Shown here piece by piece: positions 22,301-47,000 of a stretch of 64,000 nt of DNA. Within the stretch, counting starts at the first letter, position 1, and each line of letters begins with the position of its first letter. Source of the DNA: Chthoniobacterales bacterium (GTDB lineage: Bacteria > Verrucomicrobiota > Verrucomicrobiia > Chthoniobacterales > Chthoniobacteraceae); assembly GCA_038207335.1 (NCBI GenBank), contig JBBQZX010000023.1, positions 28,847 to 92,846 of the forward strand. The letters run 5' to 3'. Both the position numbers and the translations under genes were made by a program. A model generated the notes under the pieces. That model was not told where the DNA came from and did not search any database. It saw only the letters and a list, made by a program, of their open reading frames with translations.

Positions 22301-24828
22301 TCGTTCGCGGCGCTCGCGAGGGAGGTCAGCGTGATCGAGCTGTTTGCGAGGTTGATCGCCACCCCGTTCGCGATGCGGTCGGCGGAGTCGCTTGCACTGT
22401 TGTCGATGAGGAGCGCGGCATCGGTCAGCGCGATGGAAGACGTCGCAGTGAGCTTGCCCGCCGCACCGCCGACTGAGAGCGTGCTGCCTGTCACGGTCGT
22501 CGCTCCGGTGTAGCTGCCGACCGAGGTGAAAGTGAGCGCGCCAGCACCGATCTTCGTCAGCGAACGCGCGCCGCCACTTTCACCCAATCCACCGCTGAAA
22601 CCGAGCGAGCCGGCTGTCACATTGAAAGTTGCATTTGCCGTGAGTGTGCTCGCTCCACCGAACTCAAGCCCGTAACCGTTGCCGCCGGTCACGTTCAGCG
22701 TCTGGCTTCCGTTCGTCAGGCCGCCCAGCTTGAAAACATTCCCTGCTGCGACCGTGCCGCTCGCGCGGTTCACGTCGATCGACACGCTCCCGGCGATCGT
22801 CCCCCGGGCGAAAATCCCGCTCGCAGCGACGACCGACACGTCGTTCCCATACGCGAAAGTCGTCCCAGTGACCCCACCTGCGCTGCCGTTGTCACGCAGG
22901 TTCAGCCCGCCGTCTGCCAGCACGATCGCCGCCGTGCCGATCGTCTTGCCAAAACCCGTCGTCGAGTTGTTCTCGAGGCGCAGATTTTTCCCCACCGTGA
23001 TCGTCCCCGAGTAAGTGCTCCCTGGATTCTGCACGATGAACGACCCATTGTTGAAATTGTAATTCGCCCGGTTCACCGCCACCCCGATCGCCGCGCTACC
23101 CGTCAGCAGCCCCGTGTGATTGATCGTGCGTCCGATGTTGTTCGTCGCACCAGCGGAGTCAAAGTCGCGCCAGAAGTCATTCAGGAACACATACGAATCC
23201 GCCGCCGCCGTGATCGGCCCGCTCACGATCCGGTTCCCACCCGTCGTCGCCAGTGCACCGCCATTCAGCGTGATCGCCTGCGCCACCGTCCCGCCGCTCG
23301 TGGCCAGGATGCCGCCATTGATGAGCACCGTATTCGTCGCCGAGGCATTGCCCAAATTCGTATTCAGAGCCTCCACGGTCCCGTTGTTGATGACCCACGC
23401 GCCCGAGAAATTCGGGCTCGACCCCGAGTTCAGCGTCAGCCGCCCCTGCCCGTCCTTCGTGAGCGTCCCGCTTCCCGTCAGGATGTCATTCAACGGCGCC
23501 GCCGTCGCGAACCGCAGTTGCGTGATCACCCCCACCTCCTGAAACGCCGTCAGGATGCCCAGCACCTCGATCGTCGCCCCATTTGCCCCCACCGTGATCG
23601 GCCGGTTCGTCACCGTCCGGTCCGCCGCATTCGTATCCAGCAGCCGCCCGCCATTGATCGTGATCGGATTGCTCGCGACCCCGAAGAACGTCGTGTAAGC
23701 CGCGCTGTCCGCGCCCCCCGTCGTCGTCTCCAGCGTCCCCCCGGTATTGATCGTGATCCCCCCCGCCATCGTATTCACCACCGTCGGCCGCACCGTCCCT
23801 CCATTGATCGTCAGCCCGCCCGCGAAACTATTCGCCGCCGTCAGGCTCAGAATCCCCGCCCCCGTCTTCGTCACTCCGCTCGCCCCCGACACCACCCCGC
23901 TCGCCGTCAGCGCGCCCCCCGTGGACACATCGAAAGTCACATTGTCATTCAGCGCGATCGTCCCCGAAAAAGTATTCGTCCCCGAGCCATTCGTCGCCGC
24001 GATCGTCTTCACCCCCGTCGAGCCCGCGCGCACAACGATCGGCCGCGCCACCGTCGTACCCCCATCCCCATCGCTGATCCGCAACGTCGCCCCGGCCCCC
24101 GTCGCCGCAGTATCGCCGAGCTGCAGCGTCCCCCCGCTCAGTCCCCCACCCTCCGCAAAACTCAGTGCCCCCGCATTGATGAACGTATCCCCCGAAAAAG
24201 TATTCACCGCCCCAAACACCACATTGCTGTTCTGATTGATCGACAGCGTGCTCAGCGCCCCGCTGATGACCCCATTGAAAGTCACCGTCTTCCCATTATT
24301 CCCGAAAATCCTCAACTGCTGCCCCCCCGTCACCACCACCGGCGTCGTCGCCGAGAACAGCAAATTGCCATTCACCGGATCGATCTCCGAAAATCCCCCC
24401 GCCCCGCCATTCAGCGTCAGCGCCCCCGACAAATTGAACGTCTGCAACGACGTCGAATCATTCTCGATCCGCGGAAAAGCCCCCCCGAAATCGAACAACG
24501 TGAATGCATTCCCCGTGATCGTGAACGCCGGATCGATCGCCAGCGACGTATCCTCAAACGTGATCCGATGCCCCGCATACCCCGTCAGATCATTCTGCGA
24601 GAAAATCGCGCCCGTGCTGCCCGCGGTCACCCACGCATTGCCGAAGAACAAGCTCCGTGTGTTCGTGTCGCCGCCGGGAGGTGCCCCATTGTCCCAGTTC
24701 GCATTCGTGCTCCAGAGCGTATCCGCGGCACCAGTCCAACCCGTAGCAGTTTGCGCGGAGGCAGATTCCGCGAGGAGGACGGATGCTGATGTGGCGAGGA
24801 TAAACGCGTGGCGGGAACGGAATTTCAT
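19330..24828 (-). CDS. Large PEP-CTERM surface protein with autotransporter-associated beta-strand repeats
   Basis: Signal peptide; repeats such as VTKTGAGILSLTAANSFAGGLTINGG and LLKTGTGALTLSGVNTFSG; C-terminal IPEPASLATLLAGAGVLLGLRRRR. Confidence 0.9.
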   Translation of the reverse strand: MKFRSRHAFILATSASVLLAESASAQTATGWTGAADTLWSTNANWDNGAPPGGDTNTRSLFFGNAWVTAGSTGAIFSQNDLTGYAGHRITFEDTSLAIDPAFTITGNAFTLFDFGGAFPRIENDSTSLQTFNLSGALTLNGGAGGFSEIDPVNGNLLFSATTPVVVTGGQQLRIFGNNGKTVTFNGVISGALSTLSINQNSNVVFGAVNTFSGDTFINAGALSFAEGGGLSGGTLQLGDTAATGAGATLRISDGDGGTTVARPIVVRAGSTGVKTIAATNGSGTNTFSGTIALNDNVTFDVSTGGALTASGVVSGASGVTKTGAGILSLTAANSFAGGLTINGGTVRPTVVNTMAGGITINTGGTLETTTGGADSAAYTTFFGVASNPITINGGRLLDTNAADRTVTNRPITVGANGATIEVLGILTAFQEVGVITQLRFATAAPLNDILTGSGTLTKDGQGRLTLNSGSSPNFSGAWVINNGTVEALNTNLGNASATNTVLINGGILATSGGTVAQAITLNGGALATTGGNRIVSGPITAAADSYVFLNDFWRDFDSAGATNNIGRTINHTGLLTGSAAIGVAVNRANYNFNNGSFIVQNPGSTYSGTITVGKNLRLENNSTTGFGKTIGTAAIVLADGGLNLRDNGSAGGVTGTTFAYGNDVSVVAASGIFARGTIAGSVSIDVNRASGTVAAGNVFKLGGLTNGSQTLNVTGGNGYGLEFGGASTLTANATFNVTAGSLGFSGGLGESGGARSLTKIGAGALTFTSVGSYTGATTVTGSTLSVGGAAGKLTATSSIALTDAALLIDNSASDSADRIANGVAINLANSSITLTSLASAANDTAESLGTVTLLSGKNAINATQTAPGVISALTIASLVRTSGATVSFGGTNLGQPGNSSRIILGNQTSTPFMGAWATVGGSFAKYSTSLDGGFGLGVAAVDCLVDTDESTWATGQNICLTGTATATLTASRVINSLSFANTLDSRTVDVAGNTLKIESAGIIVGTNAAVITGSGGLTAGTGTAAEFILTNNAALNIAAPIIDNGGGVVSLLKTGTGALTLSGVNTFSGDIRVDQGALVLGNVGNLGTPSALGISSTLRLSTGSNLAPLQYTGVSAATDHALTAGSAGTSVDVTTSGAVLTWNGNITSAGPLTKLGAGTFAITGTNNISGDIATTAGTLALGGTTGVGGSATVGAGTTLRIDGAATIGGDLNVGLNGGTGSVIGTAGATLSIGSGAASSINIGSRNNAVNTTTNGTLDLAASAGFTANVGNLRIENDFGTASNGAMTGLLRLPNSSTAVNFITATNAFLVGNSPNEGANATATVNFGGGSTTIATPAFTVGGVKTSALANIGAGGSLNFSTAAGRAALSVGVNTVDTGTTPSSTFDLTGGTVTGGVGAINIGYRSGGGAGKVTGVLNLGTSATTNLDVNVSAGFAARIGGLDYSVGTQPTTETATGTLIIGGGNVSFTSTVAASSAIVVGYFNNTALTITGGTNAATGTFTIGGGNVTVTSAGTNNAINLAPRTVNGTPGGTQSASATLNINGGSLTVNNQIAGNSTVTNSTSTLNLAAGVLNMQGKNLTSINNVNFSGGTLRNLGTLNRALTQTGETSLLDVAANNATISGAYAVTDGDINIAASRTLAATSTALSGTATAIVNGSITGSLTVNAGATVMGSGTTAALTLAGGTIAPGNSPGILNTGALSLGGGTLSLELNGLTAGTEHDQINTIGTVTLTADTAFTLSLGFTPANNSTFTILNNDAADAIVLGANRLVYNGNRLEQNGYFVATGGQQFTISYSGGTGNDVVLTAIPEPASLATLLAGAGVLLGLRRRRQS

Positions 24829-31414: not shown

Positions 31415-31984
31415 ATGAAGACTCTGCTCCGCCTCACCGCACTCGCCGCCGCGCTCACCCTCTCCGCGTGCAGCACGCCTGAACAATATTACCGGCTCAG
31501 CGCCGATGGTCCGCCGCCGGCGAACAGCTCCGGCTTCGCGCTCGGTGTGGGGCCGGTGACACTTCCCGATTACATCGACCGCGGCGAGTTGGTCTTTCAA
31601 AGTTCCGACACGCGCTTCGAAATCCCCTACGAGCAGCGCTGGGCTGGGTCCCTCCGCGACACCGCCACGCGCGCCATTGGCACGAACCTCGCTCGCCGCC
31701 TCGGCACCGGAAACCTGCACATCTACCCGTGGCCCCCGGCCACACCGCTCCGGTATCAAGTGCGCGTCGATGTGCGTCAGTTTCACGCTCGCTCGGGCGG
31801 CGATGCAATCCTCGAAGCCTCATGGAGCATCGAAAATGGCGCCACCGGCCGGGTGCTGGTGAGGCGCAGCGGAAATTTCAGCGAACCCGTTCTGCGAAAC
31901 GGCTACGAAGGAATCGTCGCCGCGGAAAGCCGCCTGCTATCGCGATGCAGTCGAGCAATCGCGGAGTCTTTCCCAGGGCGGTAA
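31415..31984 (+). CDS. pqiC: PqiC-family outer-membrane lipoprotein
   Basis: Lipobox LSAC, YYRL, VGPVTLPDYIDR, RWAGSL; follows pqiB. Confidence 0.85.
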   Translation: MKTLLRLTALAAALTLSACSTPEQYYRLSADGPPPANSSGFALGVGPVTLPDYIDRGELVFQSSDTRFEIPYEQRWAGSLRDTATRAIGTNLARRLGTGNLHIYPWPPATPLRYQVRVDVRQFHARSGGDAILEASWSIENGATGRVLVRRSGNFSEPVLRNGYEGIVAAESRLLSRCSRAIAESFPGR

Positions 31985-32033
31985 GTTCGCGGTTCGCAGT
32001 GAGGCAGGTACTAACAAATTTCGAAATAAACTC

Positions 32034-32061
32034 TTGCGGTATGGCATGGATGCCATACCAT
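32034..32061 (+). promoter_or_regulatory. vapBC promoter overlapped by a perfect palindromic operator
   Basis: TTGCGG-16 nt-TACCAT with inverted repeat GGTATGGCAT-GG-ATGCCATACC (32038-32059). Confidence 0.7.
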
Positions 32062-32067
32062 CCATGC

Positions 32068-32310
32068 ATGAAGATGACGATGCACATCGATGAGGGTGTT
32101 CTCTCCGAAGTCATGAGGATTACGGGCGTTGCCAGCAAAACTGGCGCGGTCGAAGTCGCGCTCACGGAGATGGTGAGGCGGAGTCGTTTCAAAGAACTCG
32201 CAAAAGCGGGACTCGGGTTGAACTCCGAGGAACTTAAAAACGTGTGGGAAGATCCGTTCGAGGAAAGGCTCCTCCGGGTCGCCGAAACTCCTCCCGACTA
32301 TGCCAGCTAG
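32068..32310 (+). CDS. vapB: VapB-type antitoxin
   Basis: MKMTMHIDEGVLSEVMRITG..SKTGAVEVAL ribbon-helix-helix-like pattern; overlaps a PIN gene. Confidence 0.8.
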   Translation: MKMTMHIDEGVLSEVMRITGVASKTGAVEVALTEMVRRSRFKELAKAGLGLNSEELKNVWEDPFEERLLRVAETPPDYAS

Positions 32311-32692
32311 CGTGGTCGTCGATAGCTGTTTTTACATTGATCGACTCCGCGCGGGCATCGATCCATTCAAGGAGCTTGCTACTTACGCCGATACTTGGGA
32401 GTTCGCGACTTGTGGGGTCGTAACGCTCGAGGTGCTGCGTGGCGTCAAGCATAAGGCGTCGCATGACCGCATGCAGCAGCTTTTCAGCTCGATGATCTAT
32501 ATTCCCACCACTAATCCGATATGGGAGGGTGCCGCGGCCTTGGCTTGGCAGCTCGACCGCCTCGGGCGTCCGATGCAAGTGACTGACCTCCTCATCGCAG
32601 CCAGCGCCCTCCATTCCGAAGCTGTACTGCTAACCTTCGACCGCGATTTCAACGCCGTCCCCGGCTTGCGCGTCCTCTGCCGACTGAGCTAA
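32300..32692 (+). CDS. vapC: PIN-domain toxin VapC
   Basis: VVVDS, EVLRG, DLLIAASAL, LLTFDRDF. Confidence 0.88.
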   Translation: MPASVVVDSCFYIDRLRAGIDPFKELATYADTWEFATCGVVTLEVLRGVKHKASHDRMQQLFSSMIYIPTTNPIWEGAAALAWQLDRLGRPMQVTDLLIAASALHSEAVLLTFDRDFNAVPGLRVLCRLS

Positions 32693-32873
32693 AATTGCAC
32701 GAATTGTGGCGAAGGCGGTTTTGCGTGACACACGCTTTTAGCGGTGCTATGTGGTGCCCATGGTTCACGATGGCATGAGAAAGCTCAAAAGCTCCGGGAG
32801 GAGTGTTGGAGGTAAGTAAATCCCGCTGACGAAATTGCTTGCGCGTTTTTGCAACCAACCCAGAACCGCCACA

Positions 32874-33371
32874 ATGGATCACGCGCTGCCTCGCCATTTG
32901 CAAACGAGCGTATGCATACTAGCGCTCGCGGGAGGCGGTTATTTGTCGCGGACAGCATGTTCCGTAGCGCAAGCATCTGAAGTCCCTCCCTTGGCGGCCG
33001 CGGAAGCCACAGCAAAGGATGTGGCTGAACTGGAACAGGAGAAGGCGGCGCGGACTGAGGCTCAAAAGAAGCTGGATTCGCAAATCGTGCTCGCTCTCAA
33101 GAAAGCGCGGGGCGAACCGCCATTCGACAAACCGACCACCGTGCAGCCAGATCTCACGATCCGACCCGATGGGCGCGTTTCGGTCGATATGGATGCCGCT
33201 GTGTCGCAGGAGCTTTTGGAACAAATCGAGCGCGCAGGCGGAAAAGTCGTGAGCAGCTTTGCGGCTTCTCGGACGATCCGGGCATGGATTCCGCTGGAAA
33301 AAATCGAGTCGCTGGCGGCGCGCGACGATGTGAAATTCATTTCCCCTGCGGCTACGGCCGCGACGAACTAA
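32874..33371 (+). CDS. Stand-alone protease propeptide-like protein (putative inhibitor or chaperone of the downstream protease)
   Basis: Aligns by eye to the prodomain of 33431..40816 (EKAARTEAQKKLDSQ vs EKESRTPAQRKLDSQ; LAARDDVKFISPA vs LAARRDVRFVAPA); hydrophobic N-terminus. Confidence 0.75.
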   Translation: MDHALPRHLQTSVCILALAGGGYLSRTACSVAQASEVPPLAAAEATAKDVAELEQEKAARTEAQKKLDSQIVLALKKARGEPPFDKPTTVQPDLTIRPDGRVSVDMDAAVSQELLEQIERAGGKVVSSFAASRTIRAWIPLEKIESLAARDDVKFISPAATAATN

Positions 33372-33430
33372 GCAGACCACGAGCGGGCGCGGCGGGCGCG
33401 ATTTGACCGGAAGCAGCAGGCAAAAACCCC

Positions 33431-36400
33431 ATGAACACAACTCACAATCTTCGGCGCGCTCTCTTGGGCGTGAGGATCACCTGCATTCTCACGGCAGTAG
33501 TGCTGCTCCTCGGAAAAGCATTCGCCGCGGAGAGCATCGGCGCGAATACCCAGGCACAAATCGCGTCGCTGCTCGTGGAAAAAGAGTCACGCACGCCGGC
33601 CCAGCGGAAGCTGGATTCGCAGTTGATTTACTTTTCAAAGCAGACCCGAAATCAAGCGATCACGCCCGCGGTGGTTGCCCTGCAAACGAGTATTGAAGCG
33701 GACGCCGTGAAGCGTGTGCTGGTGGACATCAAGGCGACGGTTTCGCAGCCGCTGCTGGATTTCATCGCCGCGTCGGGCGGCTTAGTGGTGAATGAATTCG
33801 CGGCGTTCGACGCCATCCGCGCGCAATTGCCCGTCGGCTTTCTCGAGACGCTCGCGGCGCGCCGCGATGTTCGTTTCGTAGCGCCTGCGGGGAGGGCTCA
33901 GACGAATCTGGGTTCGGTCACTTCCCAAGGCGACCGCACCCATCGCGCGGATACGGCGCGCACGGACTTTCGGACCAACGGCGGCAGCGGCGTGAAAATC
34001 GGTGTGATGTCCGACGGGGTGGATTCGCTCGCGGCGTCGATCGCGAGCGGAAATCTCAACCCGAATACCACAGTCATCTCCGGTCAGGCGGGCTCAGGGG
34101 ACGAAGGGACTGCGATGATGGAAATCGTCCAGGACCTCGCACCGAACGCGCAGATTTATTTCGCAACCGCTTTCAACGGTCCGGCGAGTTTCGCATCGAA
34201 CATCCTCGCGCTCCAAGCTGCCGGCTGCACCGTCATCGTGGACGACGTGACTTATTTCAACGAGTCGCCGTTTCAGGATCAGCAAATCTCGCAGGCGGTG
34301 AATACCGTCTCGGCGGCTGGCGTGATGTATTTTTCCTCCGCGCGAAACTCCGGCAGCAAGGACAAGGGAACGTCGGGGACGTGGGAGGGAGATTTCGCGG
34401 ACGGCGGCGCGGCGGCGGTCGGCTCGAAGGCGGGACGGCTGCACGATTTCGGGGGAGCGGTCACTTTCGACACGGTGAACTCCGGCGGCAGCAGCCGGCG
34501 TGTGGATTTGTTCTGGGCCGATCCGGTCGGAGCTTCGACCAACGATTACGATTTGTTCGTAACCGATGCGGCCGGGGCAGTGCTTCGCAGCTCGACGAAT
34601 ATCCAGAGTGGCACGCAAGACCCGTACGAATCCACAGGCACGCTGAATGTCGGCGAACGGATAGTGATCGTGAAAACAACGGCGGCGGCGAGCAGGTTCC
34701 TGCATCTGGATACCGGCCGGGGGGTGATCGCAATCAGCACGCCAGGCAATGTCCGCGGGCATAATGCGGCAGGGGCTGCCAATGCATTCAGCGTCGCCGC
34801 GACCGACGTGAACAACTCGCCGAGTCCGAATTTCTTCGTCGGTGGCGCGAGCAATCCGGTCGAAGGCTTCAGTTCCGACGGCCCTCGGCGCATTTTTTTC
34901 AATCCGAATGGCACGGCGATCACCCCTGGCAATTTCTCCTCAACCGGCGGGACGGTGCTGCAAAAGCCCGATTTCACCGCGGCTGACGGCGGGGCGACTA
35001 GCGTGAGCGGATTCACCACTTTCTACGGCACGTCTGCCGCGGCACCACACGCCGCAGCCATCGCTGCGCTCATAAAATCGTACAATCCTGCGCTCACTCC
35101 CGCGCAGATTCGCAGCCTCCTCAGCAGCACCGCACTGGACATCGAGGGCGTCGGTTACGACCGCGATTCCGGCAGCGGGATCATCATGGCGCGAGCCGCG
35201 ATCCAGGCGGCACCCGTCCCGCCGACAGCGATCATCACGCTCCCGCCGAGCGTGATGGAAGGCGGCGCGGCCGGCAGTGGCACCGTGACCATCAACCCGG
35301 TGCCCACTTCGGCGGTGACCGTAAATCTCACCAACAGCACACCCACGCGGCTCACCATCCCGGCAAGCGTCGTCGTCAGTGGCGGCCAAGCGTCGGTCAA
35401 TTTCTCCGTTTCCGCTGTGAATGATGCGCTGCTCAATGGATCGCCGAGCGTGAGCGTCAATGCCAGCGCCGCCGGTTACACGGGCATCCCCGCAAATATC
35501 ACAGTCATCGACAACGAGACGACGACTCTGAGCGTGACGCTTCCCGCGACCGCCGCGGAAGGGGCTCCCGGGCTCACGGGAACGGTTACGACCGCCGCAA
35601 ATGTGGGTGCCAACGTCGCCGTGTCACTTTCCTCGAACGACTTGACGGAGCTGACCGTGCCCGCGACCGTCACGATTCTTTCGGGTCAAAACTCGGCGGC
35701 TTTTCCGCTGACGATCGTGGATGACGGAATCGTGGACGGAACGCAGACGCCGACGATCACGGCGCAGGTCACGGGGTGGACTTCGGGCAGCGGGTCGATG
35801 TTGGTGACGGACGTCGGAGCGCGGAATTTTCTCACAGAGCTCTTCGACGATTCCGCAAACGACACGGCCGGCGCGACCTACACATTCGTGCCCATCGCGA
35901 CATCAAGCGGATACACCGCGACGCGTGGAGTGGCTGCCGTTTTTCCCACCGATCCGACCGGCGGCACCGCGATCTCCGCAGACGACGACACGAGCACTGC
36001 GGTGACGCTCTCCGGCGGCGCACTGGTGAAACTTTTCGGCGTCAGCTACGGCACCCTCTACGCGGGCAGCAATGGCTACCTCACTTTTGGCAGTGGTGAC
36101 ACGCAGTACGCCGAATCCGTCGCCGCCCACTACACGCTCCCGCGCATTTCAGCACTTTTCGATGACTTGGATTTCTCCGCCGGCGGTACCCTCACGTATC
36201 GCCAGCTCGGGGACCGCGTCGCGGTGACCTGGCAGAACGTGCCGGAATACGCCACGACCAACTCGAACAGTTTTCAAATCCAAATGTTCTTCGACGGACG
36301 CATCACGATCACGATTCTCTCGATCGTCGCGACCGATGGGCTGATCGGCGTTTCACCCGGCGGTGGCGTCCCGGCGAATTTCGTAGAGACCGATTTTAGC

Positions 36401-39400
36401 GCGCTCGGCACAGGCTTCATCATTGGGCCGACGGTGTCGTCGATCGCGAATCAAACAATCCTCGAAGATCAGCCGACTATCGCGCTCGCCTTCACGGTCA
36501 GCGACGATCGGACGGCGTCCTCGAGCCTCATCGTGAGCGCGCTTTCGTCGAACACGACGCTGGTGCCGGTAGGCAGCATCGCATTCGGCGGAAGCGGCGC
36601 GAACCGCACGGTGACCGTCTCGCCCGCAGCGAATCAGATCGGCTCGACGACAATCACCATGCAAGTCACCGACGGCGACGGAAATACCACGAGTGTGCCA
36701 TTTTCGGTGACAGTGACGGCGGTCAACGACGCTCCCAGCTTCACGCGGGGCTCGTCGCAAATCGTGCTCGAAGATGCGGCGGCGCAAACGGTCGCTGGAT
36801 GGGCAACCGCGCTCAGTGCCGGGCCGGCGAATGAGGTTTCACAGGTGCTAAATTTCATCGTCTCCAACAGCAACAACGCGCTTTTTTCCGTTCAACCGAC
36901 GGTCGCGGCAAATGGCACGCTGACATTCACGCCTGCCGCGAATGCCAGCGGCTCAGCGATCGTCTCCGTGCAAATCCACGACAATGGCGGCACCGCGAAC
37001 GGCGGGGTGGACACCAGCGCCGTGCAGACTTTCACGATCGCGGTCACTGCGGTGAACGACGTCCCGGCATTCACGAAAGGCGCGAACCAGTCCGTGCTCG
37101 AGGACGCTGGCGCGCGCACGGTCGCCGCGTGGGCGACGGCAATTAGCGCGGGAGCCGCGGATGAAAGCGCGCAGGCGCTGGACTTCATCGTGAGCAATAC
37201 GAACAACGCGCTTTTCTCCACGCAGCCAGCGGTCGCAGCGAATGGCACGCTGACTTTCACGCCCGCCGCGAATGCCAGCGGCTCGGCCATCCTCTTCGTG
37301 CAAATCCACGACAACGGCGGCACGGCGAGCGGCGGCAGCGACACAAGTGCCGCGCAGACCTTCACGATCACGGTCACCGCGGTGAACGACGCGCCACGCT
37401 TCACCAAAGGCGCGGATCAAAGTGTGCTCGAAGACTCGGCCGCGCGGACCGTCGTAGGCTGGGCGTCAGCACTCAGTGCGGGGCCGGCGGATGAAAGCGG
37501 GCAGGTGTTGGACTTCATTGTGAGCAACACGAACAACGCGCTCTTCTCCGCACAGCCGTCGATCACAGTGAACGGGACACTGACCTATGCGCCCGCTCCA
37601 AACGCAAACGGCAACGCAATCGTGACCGTGCAGCTTCACGACAACGGCGGCACCGCGGGCGGTGGCGTGGACACGAGCGCTGCGCAGACTTTCTCGATCG
37701 TCGTGGACGCCGTGAACGACGCGCCGACGCTCTCGGCCATCGCGAATCCCGCCGCTATTCTCGAGGACGCGCCGGGCATGCAGACGATCGATCTCAGCGG
37801 AATTTCGACGGGGTCTGTGAACGAATCGCAAGTCCTCACCATCACCGCCGCGTCCGATAATCCGGCGCTCATTGCGACGCCATCCATCGCCTACACAAGC
37901 CCCGGCGGGACGGGTTTGCTGAGCTATGCGCCAGCGGCGAACATGAGCGGCACCGCGACAATCACGGTCCGCGTGCAAGACGATGGCGGCACTGCGAATG
38001 GCGGCGTGGATGCCGTCACTCAGACTTTCACCGTGACGGTGACAGGCGTGAATGATGCGCCGAGCTTCACGCGCGGGCCAGACTCAACGGTGCTCGAAGA
38101 TGCCGGTGCGCAGATGATTCCCGGCTGGGCGGGCGCCCTGAGCGCCGGGCCAGCGGATGAAAATGGGCAATCGCTCAACTTCATCGTTTCCAACGACAAC
38201 GCCTCCCTTTTTGCTTCCGCACCAGCGATCTCGCCGGGCGGCGCGCTGAGTTTCACCACCGCTTCCGATGCAAATGGAACCGCGACGGTTACAGTGAAAA
38301 TCCACGATGACGGCGGCACCCTAAACGGCGGTGCGGATACCAGCGCGGCACAGACTTTCACGATCAACGTGACGCCGGTGAACGACCCGCCAACGCTCAA
38401 CGCTCTCGCGCCCATGACTGTGGCGGAAGACGCCGCCCAGCAGAGCGTGCCGCTCGCAGGAATCGGCACCGGTGCCGCGAATGAAGTCCAGACGCTCGTC
38501 GTCACCGCGACCTCCAGCGATCCCGCGATCATCGCGGCGCCGGCCATCGACTTTACGAGTCCGAATGCGACGGGCACCCTGCGCTTCACGCCAGTCGCGA
38601 ATGCCAACGGTTCGGCGACGATCACCGTCACGGTCAACGACGGCGGCGCGGAAAATCCGACAACCACTCGCACCTTCACCGTCGGGGTCACCGCGGTCAA
38701 CGATGCGCCGGTATTCACGAAAGGCAGCGACCAAACGGTGAACGAAGACTCCGAGACGCAGACAGTCGCCATATGGGCAGGAGGCGTCTCCGCGGGTCCG
38801 CATGATGAAGCAGCGCAAGCGCTCGATTTCAGCGTCAGCAATGACAACGCGGCGCTCTTCACCTCTCCGCCGACATTGAGCGCGACTGGCGCGTTGAGCT
38901 ACTCTCTCGCACCCGATGCAAACGGCTTTGCGACCGTCACGGTGCTGCTGCACGACGACGGCGGCACGGCGAACGGCGGCGTGGACACGAGCGCGCCGCA
39001 GACCTTCACGATCACGGTCGTGCCCGTGAACGATCCGCCGTCGTTTCTGAAGGGCGCGGATCAAAGCGCGCGGCAAAATGCGGGCGCTCAGAGAGTGCCA
39101 GGCTGGGCCACAAATCTGAGTGCAGGACCCGCGGACGAAAGCGGACAGGCGCTCGATTTCATCGTCTCAAACGACAACCCGGCGCTCTTCAGCGTGCCGC
39201 CAGCGATCGGCCCGGATGGCGCACTCACTTTCACTCCAGCGGCAGACGCGAGCGGCACTGCGACCGTCACCGTAATGCTTCACGACAACGGCGGGACGGC
39301 TCCCGGCATCGACACCAGCGCCGCGCAGACCTTCCTCATCAGCACGACATTTGTGAATGACGCGCCGAGCTTCACCGCCGGCGGCGACCAATCGGCCGCG

Positions 39401-40816
39401 GAGGAGACCGGCCCGCAAACCATTGCTGGATGGGCATCGGCGATCTCGCCGGGGCCCGCGGACGAGGCTGCGCAGGCCGTGAATTTCATCCTGGATGTGA
39501 ACGATTCCACGATCTTCACCACCGCGCCGACGATCGCCCCTGACGGCACGCTCACCTTCACCCCGCGACCCGGCGCAAGCGGCAGTTCGATCGTCACCGT
39601 CCGCCTGCACGACAACGGAGGCACCGCAGACGGCGGAGTGGACACAAGCGATCCCGTCACCTTCACGATTTTCGTCACATCGTTCCGCGAGGAGACGGGC
39701 ACCTACAACGGCCTCGTCCGCGCTCCCGATTCCGCCGCACGCGAGAACCGCCGCGCCGGACTCATCCGCGTCACACTCGCAAAGAGCGGCGTTTTGACCG
39801 GTAAGCTCGTGCTCGGCGGCGTGAGCTACGCATTCAAAGGCAGCGTAGATAACGGCGGCGTCGCGCACTTCGGTCGCGACCGCGCGACTTCGTTTGCGCT
39901 CGTCCACCGAGGCCAGCCCGCGCGTTCGCTTTCATTGAAAATCGACGTCGCCCGCGGCACCGACACCCTCACCGGCGAGGTTTCCGAAGGTGCCGGAGCC
40001 TTCGCAAAAATTGACGCCGACCGCGCGCTCTTTTCCTCGAAGAAAAATCCAGTCGCACCGCTGATGAATGTCGCGTCCGATCTTCTCGGAAAATACACAG
40101 TTCTTTTCGCCGCGAAGTCTCCAGCGGAGGAAGGCCGCGATGCCACCACGTTCCCGCAGGGCGACGGATTCGGCTTCGTCAAAGTGCTCAAAAGTGGGGT
40201 CGTGAAGCTCACCGGCACACTCGCAGACGGCACGAAAATCAGTTGCTCGAACGCGCTTTCCAAAAACCGAACTTGGCCATTTTACGTCCGCCTCGCCAGC
40301 GGCGGGGGGTCCCTCAGCAGCCCGATTACGTTCCGCCCGCAACCCGACATCAGCGACCTCGACGGCCTCGATCTCGATTGGTTCAAACCCATGAGCTCAC
40401 ACGGAAAACGCTACACCGCCGGCTGGCCCACTGGCATCCACCCCGACCTCATCGGCGCGAAATACACCAAGCCTGCCACGAGCGAAAACCGCAGCGTCCT
40501 GCCCGGCCTTGCGCTCTCCGCGCCAGCCGGCAACGCAACCGTGACGCTCACCGGTGCCGACCTCCCGCCCGCCGGAATCGTTAAAACCGTGAACATTGAT
40601 CCGAAGAACAAAGTCTCCGTCGTCGCGCCCGGTTCGGACAAAATCGAACTCACGATCTCCGGTGCGACCGGCGGCTTCCACGGGGAATTCAAAGACCCGC
40701 TCACGAGAAAAACGCTGATCTTCAAAGGCGCGATCCTGCAATCGCAGCAACTCGGCTCAGGCTTTTTCCTCACACCGACCGGTTCCGGCGCAGTGACCGT
40801 CGAGCCGCAATTGTAG
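33431..40816 (+). CDS. Giant secreted protein: prodomain, S8/S53-like serine protease, two Calx-beta-like domains, nidogen-like domain, 10 cadherin-like repeats and ~380-aa C-terminal domain
   Basis: Signal peptide; GVMSDG, DEGTAM, FYGTSAAAPH; repeats delimited by VND(A/P/V)P with LED and GPADE motifs. Confidence 0.88.
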   Translation: MNTTHNLRRALLGVRITCILTAVVLLLGKAFAAESIGANTQAQIASLLVEKESRTPAQRKLDSQLIYFSKQTRNQAITPAVVALQTSIEADAVKRVLVDIKATVSQPLLDFIAASGGLVVNEFAAFDAIRAQLPVGFLETLAARRDVRFVAPAGRAQTNLGSVTSQGDRTHRADTARTDFRTNGGSGVKIGVMSDGVDSLAASIASGNLNPNTTVISGQAGSGDEGTAMMEIVQDLAPNAQIYFATAFNGPASFASNILALQAAGCTVIVDDVTYFNESPFQDQQISQAVNTVSAAGVMYFSSARNSGSKDKGTSGTWEGDFADGGAAAVGSKAGRLHDFGGAVTFDTVNSGGSSRRVDLFWADPVGASTNDYDLFVTDAAGAVLRSSTNIQSGTQDPYESTGTLNVGERIVIVKTTAAASRFLHLDTGRGVIAISTPGNVRGHNAAGAANAFSVAATDVNNSPSPNFFVGGASNPVEGFSSDGPRRIFFNPNGTAITPGNFSSTGGTVLQKPDFTAADGGATSVSGFTTFYGTSAAAPHAAAIAALIKSYNPALTPAQIRSLLSSTALDIEGVGYDRDSGSGIIMARAAIQAAPVPPTAIITLPPSVMEGGAAGSGTVTINPVPTSAVTVNLTNSTPTRLTIPASVVVSGGQASVNFSVSAVNDALLNGSPSVSVNASAAGYTGIPANITVIDNETTTLSVTLPATAAEGAPGLTGTVTTAANVGANVAVSLSSNDLTELTVPATVTILSGQNSAAFPLTIVDDGIVDGTQTPTITAQVTGWTSGSGSMLVTDVGARNFLTELFDDSANDTAGATYTFVPIATSSGYTATRGVAAVFPTDPTGGTAISADDDTSTAVTLSGGALVKLFGVSYGTLYAGSNGYLTFGSGDTQYAESVAAHYTLPRISALFDDLDFSAGGTLTYRQLGDRVAVTWQNVPEYATTNSNSFQIQMFFDGRITITILSIVATDGLIGVSPGGGVPANFVETDFSALGTGFIIGPTVSSIANQTILEDQPTIALAFTVSDDRTASSSLIVSALSSNTTLVPVGSIAFGGSGANRTVTVSPAANQIGSTTITMQVTDGDGNTTSVPFSVTVTAVNDAPSFTRGSSQIVLEDAAAQTVAGWATALSAGPANEVSQVLNFIVSNSNNALFSVQPTVAANGTLTFTPAANASGSAIVSVQIHDNGGTANGGVDTSAVQTFTIAVTAVNDVPAFTKGANQSVLEDAGARTVAAWATAISAGAADESAQALDFIVSNTNNALFSTQPAVAANGTLTFTPAANASGSAILFVQIHDNGGTASGGSDTSAAQTFTITVTAVNDAPRFTKGADQSVLEDSAARTVVGWASALSAGPADESGQVLDFIVSNTNNALFSAQPSITVNGTLTYAPAPNANGNAIVTVQLHDNGGTAGGGVDTSAAQTFSIVVDAVNDAPTLSAIANPAAILEDAPGMQTIDLSGISTGSVNESQVLTITAASDNPALIATPSIAYTSPGGTGLLSYAPAANMSGTATITVRVQDDGGTANGGVDAVTQTFTVTVTGVNDAPSFTRGPDSTVLEDAGAQMIPGWAGALSAGPADENGQSLNFIVSNDNASLFASAPAISPGGALSFTTASDANGTATVTVKIHDDGGTLNGGADTSAAQTFTINVTPVNDPPTLNALAPMTVAEDAAQQSVPLAGIGTGAANEVQTLVVTATSSDPAIIAAPAIDFTSPNATGTLRFTPVANANGSATITVTVNDGGAENPTTTRTFTVGVTAVNDAPVFTKGSDQTVNEDSETQTVAIWAGGVSAGPHDEAAQALDFSVSNDNAALFTSPPTLSATGALSYSLAPDANGFATVTVLLHDDGGTANGGVDTSAPQTFTITVVPVNDPPSFLKGADQSARQNAGAQRVPGWATNLSAGPADESGQALDFIVSNDNPALFSVPPAIGPDGALTFTPAADASGTATVTVMLHDNGGTAPGIDTSAAQTFLISTTFVNDAPSFTAGGDQSAAEETGPQTIAGWASAISPGPADEAAQAVNFILDVNDSTIFTTAPTIAPDGTLTFTPRPGASGSSIVTVRLHDNGGTADGGVDTSDPVTFTIFVTSFREETGTYNGLVRAPDSAARENRRAGLIRVTLAKSGVLTGKLVLGGVSYAFKGSVDNGGVAHFGRDRATSFALVHRGQPARSLSLKIDVARGTDTLTGEVSEGAGAFAKIDADRALFSSKKNPVAPLMNVASDLLGKYTVLFAAKSPAEEGRDATTFPQGDGFGFVKVLKSGVVKLTGTLADGTKISCSNALSKNRTWPFYVRLASGGGSLSSPITFRPQPDISDLDGLDLDWFKPMSSHGKRYTAGWPTGIHPDLIGAKYTKPATSENRSVLPGLALSAPAGNATVTLTGADLPPAGIVKTVNIDPKNKVSVVAPGSDKIELTISGATGGFHGEFKDPLTRKTLIFKGAILQSQQLGSGFFLTPTGSGAVTVEPQL

Positions 40817-41052: not shown

Positions 41053-44000
41053 ATGAACCTCCTCCCTTGTTCTCTCCGGCTAGCACGTTTTTCGGCGGCA
41101 GCCATTTCACTTAGTCTGCTCTGGGCTGCGCCGATGGCGCGGGCGCAGCAGCAGGGTTTCCCGGCTCCGGTATTCGCGAAGCCGGATGGGGCGGAGCTGG
41201 CGCGGAGGGAGGCGGCACCGGAGGCTTTCGCGCCGAATCTGCCACCGATCCCGACAGCGCAGGTGGGCGGGGTGTGGACTTCGATGGGGCCGGCGCCGAC
41301 GCGGAGTGGCCAGGTGACGGTGCCACCGAATAACGAGATCGCCGGGGCGATCCAGGCGATCGCGGTGCATCCGACGAATCCGGCGATTTTGTATATCGGA
41401 GCGGTGAATGGGGGCGTGTGGCGGACGGCGAATGCGACGGCTGCGACGCCGACATGGACGCCGCTGACGGATACGCAGGGGTCGCAATCGATCGGGGCGG
41501 TGGAGTTCGACCCGACGGATGCGACTTTTCAGACGCTCGTAGCGGGGAGCGCACGGACGAGCAGCTACGGCGCGGTCGGCGGGGCGACAATCGGGGTGCT
41601 GCGGACGACGGATGGAGGAAATACGTGGACGGCGCTGGGAGGCTCGACTTTCTCGAATGAACACCTGACGAGCGTGGCCGCGCGCGGGAATATCATCATG
41701 GCGGGGTCGGACAATCAGTGGTCGGGAGGCGGGGGAAACGGGCTTTTTCGCAGCACGGATGGAGGAGCGTCATTTATACGAATTTCCGGCGGAAGCGGGA
41801 CGGGACTGCCGACGGGGCCGGTGAGCGATCTGGTGGGCGATCCGACGGTGACGACGCGCTTCTACGTGGCGGTGCGGACGGCGGGGATTTATCGCAGCGA
41901 TGACTCGGGGGCGACGTGGACGAATGTGACGACGGGGATCACGGGCATCACGAGCGCGACGACGAAGGTGGAGATGGCGGTTCACAATAATGGGACGACG
42001 AACGCGGTGTGGGTGGGGGTGATCAACAACAACGTGCTTGCGAGTGTGTGGCGCTCGACGACGCTGGGCGCATCGTGGACGCAACTGGATACGCCGCCGG
42101 CATTCAATGGGGCGCAGGGCCAGATTCACTTTGGGATCGCGGCGGATCGGGCGAGTGCGAACATCGTCTATATCTCCGGCGACCGGATCGCGGCTTCGCC
42201 TTTCACGGGGAATATTTTCCGGGGAGATGCGACGCTGGCCACTGGGAGCCAATTCGTGACAATCGTGAACGGGAACGCGGGGAACACGACGCCGCACGCG
42301 GATTCGCGTGAGCTCGTGATGGATGCGAATGGGAATCTCATCGAAGGGGACGACGGAGGCCTGTATCGACGGACATCGCCGCTCTCGAGCGCCGGGACGT
42401 GGGGCTCGGTGATCGGGAATCTGGCGGTATTCGAGGCGCACGATGTGGCCTACGACAGCGTCGCGCATGTGGGAATGGTGGGGACTCAGGATAATGGGAC
42501 GCACATCGAGTCGGCGAATGGATCGCTGATTTGGACTTTCATCGCGGGCGGCGATGGCGGCGACGTGGCGATCGACGATCGGAGCACGCCCGGGCAGTCG
42601 ATCCGGTATGGGAGTTCGCAGAATCTGGGCGGCTTTTTCCGGAGGACTTACAATGCCGCGAATGCGCAAGTGAGCAGCACATCGCCTGCGCTGACGGTGC
42701 TGAATGGCGGAGCGGCCATCGGGGTGCAATTCACGACGCCGATCGAGCTGAACGAGGTGGATGCGACGCGGCTGATCATCGGCGGCTCGAATTCGGCGTA
42801 CGAGTCGCTGAACCGCGGCGATACGGTGACGGCGCTGGCGGATGGCTTCGGAGTGAATGGAACCTTCACCGGAAATCCGATCGCGTATGGCGGGATGCTC
42901 ACCGGGGTGCCCAACCCGGACGTGCTCTACTACGGCTCGGGCTCGGCGGTGCGGGTGCGGACGACGGCAGGCGGGGCGATCACGAATACGACGGCGGCAT
43001 TTCCAGGCGGGACGGTGCAGGACATCGTGCTGGACACGAATGACTGGCGACGGGTTTTTGCGGCGGGCAGCTCGAGCGTCTATGTCAGCGCGAATTCAGG
43101 CGGCGCGTGGACGAATATCACGGGGAATCTGACGGGCGTGGGGTCGATCCACACGCTCGAATTTTTCCGGCTGAGCGGCGTGGACTGCGTGGCGGCAGGG
43201 ACGGACGTGGGGGTGTTTTGTTCCTTCGTGGATAATCTCGGGACGTGGTCGCGGCTCGGGAGCGGCCTGCCGAATGTACTGGTGTACGACATGACATTCA
43301 GCGCGGTGGACAGCGTGCTGGTGGTAGGCACCTTGGGGCGCAGCACCTTCCGCCTGCCGATCGTAAATAACACGGCGACCGTGACGCTACCGGCGAGTGT
43401 GACGGAGGGCGGAGCGTCGGGGACCGGCACGGTGACGCTGAATCCGATCCCGACTGCAAATGTGACGGTGACGCTGTCGGCGAGTGTGCCCGCGCGCTTG
43501 AGTGTGCCGGCTACCGTGGTGGTGACGAGCGGACAGGCGTCCGCAAATTTCACGGTGAGCGCGGTGAATGACGCCATTTTGAACGGCTCGACGACGGTGC
43601 AGGTGGACGCAACGGCGGCGAGCTACGGCAGCGTGCCGGGGTTCATCACGGTCATCGACAACGAGACGACGACTCTCACCGTGACGCTCCCGGCGACCGC
43701 CGTGGAAGGAGCGACGGGACTCACAGGCACGGTGACCACCGCGGCGAATGTGGGCGCAAACGTCGCGGTTTCGCTTTCCTCGAATGACACGACGGAACTG
43801 ATCGTGCCCGCGAGCGTCACGATCCTTTCGGGTCAAAATACCGCGACTTTCCCGCTGACGATCGTGGACGACGGGATCGTGGACGGCACGCAGACGCCGA
43901 CGGTCACGGCGCAGGTCGCGGGGTGGACCTCGGGCAGCCGTTCGATGTCGGTGACGGACGCGGGGGTGCGGAATTTTCTGACGGAGCTTTTCGACAATCC

Positions 44001-47000
44001 GACGACGGATGTGAACGACACGGCGGGGGCGACTTACGCCTTCACGCCGGTGGCGACCTCGAGCGGATACACCGCGAGCCGCGTGGTGACCTCCACCTTT
44101 CCCACCGATCCCACCGGCGGCACGGCGGTCGCCGCGGGCGACGACACGAGCTCTGCGGTGGCACTGACCGGCGGCGCGCTGGTGCGGCTTTTCGGGGTGG
44201 ACTACGGCACGGTCTTCATCGGCAGCAACGGATACCTCACCTTTGGCAGCGGCGACACCACGTTCGGCGAATCGATCGCCGCGCACTATTCGCTGCCGCG
44301 AGTCTCCGCGCTTTTCGACGATCTCGATGTTTCCGCGGGGGGCAGCCTCACATATCGGCAGCTCGCCGACCGGCTTGCGGTGACCTGGCAGGCGGTGCCG
44401 GAATTCAACACGTCAACCTCGAATAATTTCCAGATCGAGATGTTCTTCGACGGGCGCATCTCGATCACGATCCTCGCGATCGGTGCGGTCGATGGTTTGA
44501 TCGGCGTTTCACCCGGCGGCGGGACTCCGGCGAATTTCGTGGAGACGAATTTCAGTGGGCTCCCGGGGCCGTTCTTGATCGGGCCGACGGTGTCGTCGAT
44601 CGCAAATCAAACGATTCTCGAAGACCAGGCGACCAGCGCGCTCGGCTTCACGGTCAACGACGATCGGACGGCGTCCGCGAGCCTCGTACTAAGCGCGCTT
44701 TCGTCGAACACGACGCTCGTGCCGGTGGGCAATATCGTATTCGGCGGAAGCGGCGGGAACCGCACCGTGACTGCCTCGCCCGCGGCGAATCAGAATGGCT
44801 CGGCAACGATCACAGTGCGCGTCACCGACGGCGACGGGAATACCACGAGCGTCCCATTTTCGCTGACAGTGACGGCGGTCAATGACGCTCCGAGCTTCAC
44901 GCGCGGCTCGTCGCAGATCGTGCTCGAAGATGCGACGGCGCAAACGGTCTCGGGATGGGCCACCGCGCTCAGCGCCGGGCCGGCGGATGAGAGTTCGCAG
45001 GTGCTGAATTTCATCGTCTCCAACAACAACAACGCGCTCTTTTCCGCGCAGCCTGCTGTCGCGGCAAATGGCACGCTGACATTCACGCCCGCGGCAAACG
45101 CCAGCGGCTCGGCCACCGTCACCGTGCAAATCCACGACAACGGCGGCATAGCGAACGGTGGCGTGGACACCAGCGCGGTGCAGACTTTCACGATCGCGGT
45201 CACGGCGGTGAACGACGTCCCGACATTCACGAAAGGCGCGAATCAGTCCGTGCTCGAGGATGCAGGCGCGCGCAGCGTCGCCGCGTGGGCCACGGCAATC
45301 AGCCCGGGTCCCGCGGATGAAAGCGGGCAGGCGCTGGACTTCATCGTGAGCAACACGAACAACGCGCTCTTCTCCGCGCAGCCGGCTGTCGCGGCGAATG
45401 GGACGCTGACATTCACGCCCACGGCAAACGCCAGCGGTTCAGCCACCGTCACCGTGCAAATCCACGACAACGGCGGCGGCGTGGACACCAGCGCGGCACA
45501 GACTTTCACGATCACGGTGACGGCGGTGAACGATGCTCCGAGTTTCGTAAAAGGCGCGAACTCGACGGTGCTCGAAGATGCCGGTGCGCAGACGATTCCC
45601 GGCTGGGCGACTGCGCTGAGCGCAGGGCCCGCGGATGAAAGCGGACAGGCGTTGAACTTCATCGTCTCCAATGACAACGCTCCGCTTTTTGCCTCCGCAC
45701 CCGCGGTGTCGGCGGGCGGCGCGCTGACTTTCCTCCCGGCTCCCAATGCCAATGGAACCGCGACGGTTACAGTTCAAATCCATGACAATGGCGGCACTGC
45801 AAACGGCGGCTTGGACACCAGCACGGCGCAGATTTTCACGATCAATGTGACGCCGGTGAACGATGCGCCGACGCTCTCGGCGATCGCAAATCCGGCGGCG
45901 ATTCTGGAAGATGCGCCGGGCGTGCAGACGGTCTCACTCGCGGGCATTTCCACCGGGCCGGTGAATGAAACTCAGACGCTCACGGTCACCGCGACTTCGG
46001 ACAATCCGGCGCTCATTCCGACGCCGTCCATCGCCTACACGAGCCCCGGCGCAACGGGCTCGGTGAACTACGCGCCGGCGGCGAACATGAGCGGCACCGC
46101 GACGATCACGGTCCGCGTGCAAGACGATGGAGGCACCGCGAATGGCGGCGTGGACGCCGTCACACAGACTTTCACCGTGACGGTGACCGGCGTGAATGAT
46201 GCGCCGAGTTTCACGCGCGTGCCGGACTCGACGGTGCTCGAAGATGCCGGTGCGCAGACGATTCCCGGGTGGGCGAGCGCCCTGAGCGCCGGGCCTGCGG
46301 ATGAAAATGGGCAGTCGCTGAACTTCGTCGTCTCGAGCGACAACGCGGCGCTTTTCTCCTCCGCTCCCGCGGTGTCGCCGACTGGCGCGTTGAGCTTCAC
46401 GGCAGCTCCCGATGCAAATGGAACCGCGACGGTTACAGTGCAAATCCACGACGACGGCGGCACAGCGAATGGAGGCGTGGATACCAGCGCGGCGCAGACA
46501 TTCACGATCAATGTAACTGCGGTGAACGACCCGCCGACGCTCAACGCGCTCGCGCCGATGACCGTGGCGGAAGATGCCGCCGAGCAGAGTGTGCCACTCG
46601 CGGGAATCGGCACCGGCGCGGCGAATGAATCGCAGACGCTCGTCGTCACCGCGACCTCCAGCGATCCCGCGATCGTCGCCACGCCGTCGATCGACTTCAC
46701 GAGTCCGAATGCGACGGGCACGCTGCGCTTCACGCCGGTCGCGAATGCCAACGGCTCGGCGACGATCACCGTCACGGTCAATGACGGCGGCGCGGAGAAC
46801 CCGACGGCGACCCGCACATTCACGGTGAACGTCACGGCGGTGAACGACTCACCGGCCTTCACGAAAGGCACCGACCAAATCGTGAACGAAGACAGCGGGG
46901 CGCAGACCGTCGCCGTCTGGGCGGGAAGTATCTCTGCGGGTCCGCCGGATGAAGCGGCGCAGGCGCTCGATTTCATCGTGAGCAACGACAACGCGGCGCT

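Follow-up and report, generated by a model that had tools for sequence, protein, structure and literature searches.

Subtilase propeptides bind their proteases through a beta-sheet, the beta2–beta3 loop and a C-terminal tail, according to the available text of PMC10580911, and stand-alone proteins of the MEROPS I9 type or mimics include Pleurotus POIA1, yeast peptidase B inhibitor, Arabidopsis propeptide-like inhibitor 1, Toxoplasma MIC5 and Plasmodium SUB1-ProM (PMC6993865, available text). We analyzed a 64,000-nucleotide stretch of a Chthoniobacterales genome (assembly GCA_038207335.1, contig JBBQZX010000023.1, positions 28,847–92,846; hereafter the window) in which a small gene, encoding 165 amino acids, stands directly in front of a gene for a giant S8 (subtilase) protease and is homologous to that protease's own (cis) prodomain. 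An intact gene, purifying selection, one old lineage of relatives, a fixed place upstream of a protease gene and a junction-like tail support the reading, drawn from sequence and a structural model, that the small protein is probably co-expressed and exported with the adjacent protease and probably inhibits it in trans. Like the I9-type stand-alones, it has a separate small gene and a predicted propeptide fold, and SUB1-ProM also adjoins subtilase genes (PMC6993865). The I9-type proteins named in the available text of that source are all eukaryotic, and three I9 stand-alones lack significant sequence similarity to propeptides, whereas the present family is bacterial, is 42–45% identical to cis prodomains, has no Pfam I9 match and includes a branch that adjoins a metalloprotease-like gene.

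Potempins, which pair with KLIKK-peptidases in Tannerella forsythia, are likewise small exported proteins encoded directly upstream of a cognate secreted protease, with stop and start codons overlapping or close, and their partners, as here, belong to different catalytic classes, serine and metallo (PMC9890683, available text). The small open reading frame (ORF) in the window has the same position directly upstream of a protease gene, and its export is suggested by N-termini. Potempins are beta-barrels (OB or up-and-down), 4–14% mutually identical and unrelated to propeptides (PMC9890683, available text), whereas the present family would have a single alpha/beta propeptide fold, is about 40–60% identical across types and is paired with both classes. 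Spi, encoded beside SpeB in Streptococcus pyogenes, is also a bacterial free propeptide homologue next to its protease, 'a propeptide analogue' (PMC2873492, available text). The Spi–SpeB pair differs in involving a C10 cysteine protease, another fold and no partner switch. Spi is encoded downstream of SpeB and is intracellular. The cis propeptides of Tk-SP, Tk-subtilisin, BPN', CspB and PCSK9 share the predicted fold and tail register; unlike them, the small protein has its own gene, an E-P-P-F-D loop and no autoprocessing from a precursor. The family thus would resemble I9-type inhibitors in its working and resembles potempins and Spi in its arrangement, and by sequence is a member of none of these groups. 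In the literature searched, with most subscription journals outside coverage, we found neither the family nor a pairing of a metalloprotease with a propeptide fold described; nor did that literature describe a free propeptide-like inhibitor of a bacterial subtilase, such inhibitors having been characterized in fungi, plants and apicomplexans.

The small gene is an intact ORF whose product ends in ISPAATAATN before a TAA stop, and the ATG of the 2,461-amino-acid protease ORF lies 59 nucleotides (nt) beyond that stop in a different frame. By BLASTP, 55 of 122 residues are identical between the small protein and the protease N-terminus (45%, E 4e-25), and the alignment ends at T158-N159 of the protease, which then reads LGSVTSQGD. 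DNA similarity is confined to short patches, the best of them 46 of 64 nt, arguing against recent duplication. A short hydrophobic stretch, VCILALAGGG, lies near the N-terminus of the small protein, which, judged by eye, is likely exported; several homologue N-termini have lipobox-like cysteines and others resemble ordinary signal peptides. An earlier note on this DNA had already reported the alignment with the next gene's prodomain, the stop right after an A-x-T-N junction, and an intact but diverged copy with a hydrophobic N-terminus in another frame, and all of these observations held. In the window's genome, a search turned up only these two copies of the domain. Stand-alone relatives fall into two types, named by their tails, which read P-A-A-x-A-T-T-N in type A and, for example, PARLTITSKI or AARPSITHRL in type B. 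The features at the locus are as follows.

32874–33371, + strand: stand-alone gene of type A with a predicted propeptide fold, 165 amino acids (178 from an in-frame TTG at 32835); from sequence, homologues, the ratio of nonsynonymous to synonymous substitution rates (dN/dS) and the model.
32874–32975, + strand: putative signal-peptide-like N-terminus, residues 1–34; from sequence and homologue N-termini, with a predicted local distance difference test score (pLDDT) of about 50–60.
32988–33347, + strand: modelled region of the small protein; from an AlphaFold2 model and fold comparisons.
33114–33128, + strand: E-P-P-F-D signature, residues 81–85, near-invariant in both stand-alone types and unconserved in fused prodomains; from alignments.
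33348–33371, + strand: C-terminal tail A-A-T-A-A-T-N and stop, fitting the pro/catalytic junction, with N165 as predicted P1 residue; from BLASTP and fold alignment.
33431–40816, + strand: partner gene, a 2,461-amino-acid S8 protease with a signal-like N-terminus, its own prodomain, a catalytic domain, Big_9/cadherin-like repeats and a C-terminal domain without assignment; from the ORF and Pfam.
33527–33907, + strand: cis prodomain of the protease, about residues 33–159, ending A-Q-T-N; from BLASTP and alignments.
33908–35215, + strand: S8 catalytic domain, residues 160–595; from Pfam and homologue alignment.

A search for homologues of similar length returned 27 proteins: the window's own, 19 of type A (P0004–P0022) and seven others, comprising type B forms, one stand-alone protein without the signature and one protease fragment. 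Only two of the 19 type A homologues stop at the junction Asn as the window's protein does; the other 17 continue for 4–25 residues, so that 'pre-cleaved', the earlier note's description, does not extend to the family. An exhaustive search yielded 1,671 representatives at E 0.001, and the signature, defined as xPF[DE] after the KLD helix, was scored among the best 150 (50% identity). It was present in 39, of which 37 end within 45 residues of the domain; the 111 without it include 61 that extend by over 100 residues, almost always into an S8 domain, and 38 short-ending proteins that may be fragments or other stand-alone lineages. Several short, propeptide-like proteins lacking the PFD signature (P0029, P0084, P0115, P0132, P0162, P0170 and others) have natural-looking Pro/Lys-rich tails and are possibly further independent stand-alone lineages. 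A terminal K-P or I-K-P behind a variable low-complexity spacer is frequent in type A and is also seen in some type B proteins. One protein of 1,545 amino acids (P0059) carries a signature-bearing domain at about 1154–1281, in the C-terminal region of a large surface protein that has no S8 or NF038122 match. The small protein itself has no family model (no Pfam match at E 0.1 apart from a weak unrelated one, and no NCBIfam match), and comparison with PDB sequences gave nothing below E 1.3.

In an unrooted tree of 50 domain sequences from the loci, from which four cut or duplicate loci were excluded, 36 stand-alone rows separated from 14 fused prodomains with support of 96/98, and the split persisted at a Shimodaira–Hasegawa-like approximate likelihood ratio test (SH-aLRT) value of 94 once tail columns were dropped. 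Type B formed a branch at 100/100, with SH-aLRT still 100 without those columns. Median dN/dS was 0.22 for type A, where 17 of 36 pairs were usable and 19 were saturated, and 0.32 for type B (maximum 0.80; 301 of 351 pairs), well below the value near 1 that the earlier note had named as refuting its reading; close homologues also do not run into a catalytic domain, another refuting sign that it had proposed. At seven loci with both forms, free copies were 61% identical to one another and cis prodomains 51%, and the identity of a free copy to the prodomain next door (42%) was no higher than to the prodomains at the other loci (43%). These figures, with the patchy DNA similarity, rule out a recent duplicate of the neighbour's prodomain and do not support the idea of a copy of that prodomain as it was stated. 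By sequence, the stand-alone relatives are one old lineage apart from the fused prodomains; this separation, the low dN/dS and the identities at the seven loci indicate that the free form is old and has been conserved no less strictly than the cis prodomain.

The predicted structure points to a subtilase-propeptide fold. An AlphaFold2 model built from a 27-row alignment had a mean pLDDT of 82, with 96–98 in the core, and shows the four-stranded antiparallel sheet and two helices of the I9-type fold, with two additional N-terminal helices relative to I9-type stand-alones. A wide VIA fold search ranked the Tk-SP prodomain (3afg) first (Z 9.0, root-mean-square deviation (rmsd) 2.4, 78 residues aligned), followed by POIA1 (1v5i; Z 7.1, rmsd 1.9, 64 aligned) and further propeptides, and CspB_prodomain clusters were found in the ESM Atlas (score 0.93). 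Residue 165 of the model pairs with the final residue of the propeptide chains of BPN' (77), Tk-subtilisin (69) and PCSK9 (152), which we take to be P1 residues.

To survey gene neighbourhoods we used signature-based searches, which found 3 loci among 14 candidate stretches from genomes and 36 among 169 from metagenomes, and a relatives search, which added one stand-alone and five fused loci; the partner gene was absent from every query. Besides the window there were 38 stand-alone loci, nine of type A and 29 of type B, two of them cut before the tail. Two of the nine type A loci end without downstream DNA, six have an S8 gene with the motif DEGTAM directly downstream (catalytic domain 72–79% identical to the window's) and one (L033) has no protease. 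Including the window, an S8 gene of Asp-Glu-Ser type thus follows directly in 7 of 8 informative type A loci, in line with the earlier note's expectation that homologues sit upstream of DEG(T/R)AM-type proteases. The gap ranges from −4 to about 80 nt, with an ATGA overlap in one locus (L016), and in 7 of 7 pairs the S8 partner retains its own intact prodomain.

Type B has a different neighbour, and most of the sampled family adjoins it rather than an S8 gene. Among 27 complete type B loci, 24 have an NF038122-like gene (metallo_LGF) directly downstream, none has an S8 gene there, and in the other three the sequence breaks off 108–167 nt past the stop, within what resembles the same signal-peptide start. 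At 14 of 30 loci the small gene and the partner ORF share a frame; the stop codons differ, and every partner begins with a start codon and a signal-like peptide of its own. Distances among type B proteins and among their partners were correlated (Mantel rho 0.54, 0 of 2,000 permutations, 18 loci), a co-variation expected for genes inherited together and one that shared ancestry alone can yield. The best 120 of 165 longer type B matches are all 238–299 amino acids long, and in 108 of the 118 new ones there is an additional N-terminal domain of about 100 residues, which has no Pfam match and only Atlas leads below 0.9. None of those best 120 is fused to a metalloprotease, which is weak evidence that such a fusion is absent. 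The window's genome yielded no NF038122 partner. The metagenome-assembled genome of L009, of unstated completeness, encodes type B together with its metalloprotease and gave no match to a DEG-type S8 at E 1e-20, making it unlikely that type B serves an S8 in that genome. A 1,832-residue, repeat-rich surface protein with a PEP-CTERM-like tail is encoded in the window at 19330–24828 (− strand), and its G-N-D-V-V-L motif resembles the end of the type B extension; a profile of that extension gave no match to this protein at E 1e-4, and three other ORFs of the genome matched near their C-termini.

Both partners have a recognizable protease family or predicted protease fold with atypical active-site residues. 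The window's S8 protein scores 47.2 bits with Pfam PF00082 (cut-off 21.8), and all 8 of the 8 homologues aligned share D195, E225, N306 and S535. The nucleophile G-T-S (S535) and the oxyanion Asn (N306) are present; in place of a classical Asp-His-Ser triad, E-G-T-A-M stands where H-G-T is expected, with E225 for His, which presumably fits the Asp-Glu-Ser subset of Siezen et al. 2007. Pfam shows S8, Big_9 and Cadherin_5 domains and no anchor, and so does not support the earlier note's 'tethered' protease. A second giant gene follows at 41053–48957 (+ strand; 2,634 amino acids), with very similar Big_9/cadherin repeats and C-terminal domain and a BNR/Vps10-like N-terminal domain replacing the protease; it is a modular paralogue, possibly in the same operon. 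For type B, all three partners tested passed the NF038122 NCBIfam cut-off (135–158 bits versus 80), and a partner model (pLDDT 94) shows a metzincin-like fold resembling leishmanolysin (Z 12.5, rmsd 3.1, 183 aligned) and matrix metalloproteases (Z about 10); Foldseek with this model returned nothing under E 0.7. The first strand of the predicted catalytic domain comes straight after a signal-like peptide, with no prodomain. Instead of the zinc motif HExxHxxGxxH the protein has H164-E165-x-x-E168, in which E165 and E168 are invariant in an 84-row alignment. No paper on the NF038122 accession was found in the literature searched. At two loci (L005, 527–1332, − strand; L029, 6406–7250) the NF038122 gene appears split by a frame change beside an intact small gene, which may reflect assembly error or decay.

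We compared alignment columns of 61 cis prodomains, 33 type A and 122 type B proteins, the last dominated by the extended form, and excluded 17 unclassified sequences. Position 129 is Phe in 62% of cis prodomains and 76% of type A and Ser in 72% of type B; position 155 is Phe in 80% and 85%, respectively, and Ser in 72% of type B. From their place in the model, F129 and F155 are putative contact residues. An EKxxRT helix is common to cis prodomains and type A and absent from type B, and P83-F84-D85, conserved at 99–100% in both free types, is unconserved in cis prodomains. T164 and N165 occur in 85% and 94% of type A versus 59% and 59% of cis prodomains, a difference that is partly circular because types were assigned by their tails.

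Of the earlier note's reading, the data support a genuine protein that is under selection, has a gene of its own and is predicted to adopt a propeptide fold; they do not support 'pre-cleaved' as a rule for the family, or a copy of the neighbour's prodomain. Inhibition in trans would work as follows. The protease would fold with its own prodomain and remove it, and the free copy, exported and in some species perhaps a lipoprotein, would then take the vacated site, its beta-sheet docking on the same surface helices as the cis prodomain and A-x-T-N being laid into the S4–S1 sites in a product-like manner that blocks the cleft; the additional residues in the tails of relatives would either be trimmed off or sit on the prime side. 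The free form may owe its self-stability to the E-P-P-F-D loop and so outlast the destroyed cis prodomain as a durable safety catch guarding the envelope until the enzyme is released. In type B the core would have been kept while the tail and the two predicted contact positions were rewritten, and the protein, now standing before a prodomain-less metzincin-like protein, would inhibit this partner or act as its prodomain in trans. The wider proposal, which we put forward tentatively and with slightly less than even confidence, is that on one occasion a subtilase propeptide turned into an exported inhibitor that is free and self-stable, and that one of its branches then exchanged a serine protease for an unrelated zinc protease as target. 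Changes to about ten C-terminal residues and a few contact positions would have re-aimed this branch, which would serve the zinc enzyme as inhibitor or trans prodomain. The partner switch may have been a single event.

Several observations weigh against inhibition of the adjacent protease. Both partners are predicted proteases, with Glu in place of His in the S8 protein and HExxE for HExxH in the NF038122 protein. The last five residues of the small-protein model, the proposed plug, have a low-confidence pLDDT of 64; fold Z-scores are middling, but homology to the cis prodomain stands on sequence, and Foldseek with this model gave no match at E 0.001, although its top rows were nearly all subtilase propeptides. 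Locus counts are not independent events, since they include near-duplicates (L025/L026, L030/L031, L013/L021) and related organisms. The pairing with S8 is also not obligatory: in L002, whose S8 is 81% identical to the window's, the 1.3 kb examined upstream contain no small gene, the orphan type A gene of L033 (459–1043) is followed by a Fur-like regulator on the opposite strand, and of 401 genomes of the phylum only eight have the domain, seven with the fused form alone and only the window's with the free form. On the metalloprotease side, seven distant NF038122-like genes (25–28% identity) lack a small gene in the examined flanks of about 1.5 kb.

These gaps also bear on a trans folding or secretion chaperone for which inhibition is incidental, which we regard as unlikely overall, type B being where it is most plausible. 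In its favour, a chaperone role in folding is established for subtilase propeptides (PMC6993865 and PMC10580911, available text), the NF038122 partner starts with its catalytic-domain strand, and no fusion of that partner with type B was seen among the best 120 of 165 longer matches; the S8 partner, however, keeps its own prodomain in every pair, and the S8 and NF038122-like genes without a small gene argue against an essential chaperone role for S8. Still less probable is a non-inhibitory adaptor that, attached to the protease itself or via the E-P-P-F-D loop to a third protein, holds the protease at the envelope with its active site free. Such a tether would suit the lipobox-like cysteines of several type A proteins, a PFD loop invariant whatever the partner, the extra N-terminal domain of the longer type B proteins and the signature domain inside P0059, but the part that varies with the class of partner is the tail, an active-site plug in known propeptides, and its conservation is higher in type A than in cis prodomains. 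Broad immunity against related proteases of other cells, with adjacency reflecting origin only, would account for the equal distance to own and foreign prodomains and for the orphan; tight conserved adjacency, partner-specific tails and the genome with type B and no detected DEG-type S8 make it improbable. A truncated duplicate or pseudogene remnant of the protease 5' end, which adjacency, shared orientation and homology would suggest, is effectively ruled out by dN/dS of 0.2–0.3, the separate lineage in the tree, an invariant signature of its own and the ends of signature-bearing homologues.

The family offers a testable bacterial case with a large natural series (the 39 signature-bearing representatives) and a first handle on the Asp-Glu-Ser subtilases and the NF038122 proteins, two protease groups that are unstudied; it may also provide a small scaffold for protease inhibitors. 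More surprising is the switch of partner, a natural experiment on whether tail or sheet sets propeptide-fold specificity, and if true it would reveal a natural retargetable inhibitor scaffold crossing catalytic classes. The family also marks an annotation gap: with no Pfam or NCBIfam model, its genes are open to being mistaken for truncated protease fragments.

A promoter and terminator scan of 31900–33600 gave no promoter-like sites and one terminator-like site, which is chance level. Just upstream of the small gene, at about 32070–32692 (+ strand), lies a vapBC-like pair, with a PIN-domain gene (32300–32692) after a short antitoxin-like ORF; the genes upstream of the small gene vary among related loci.

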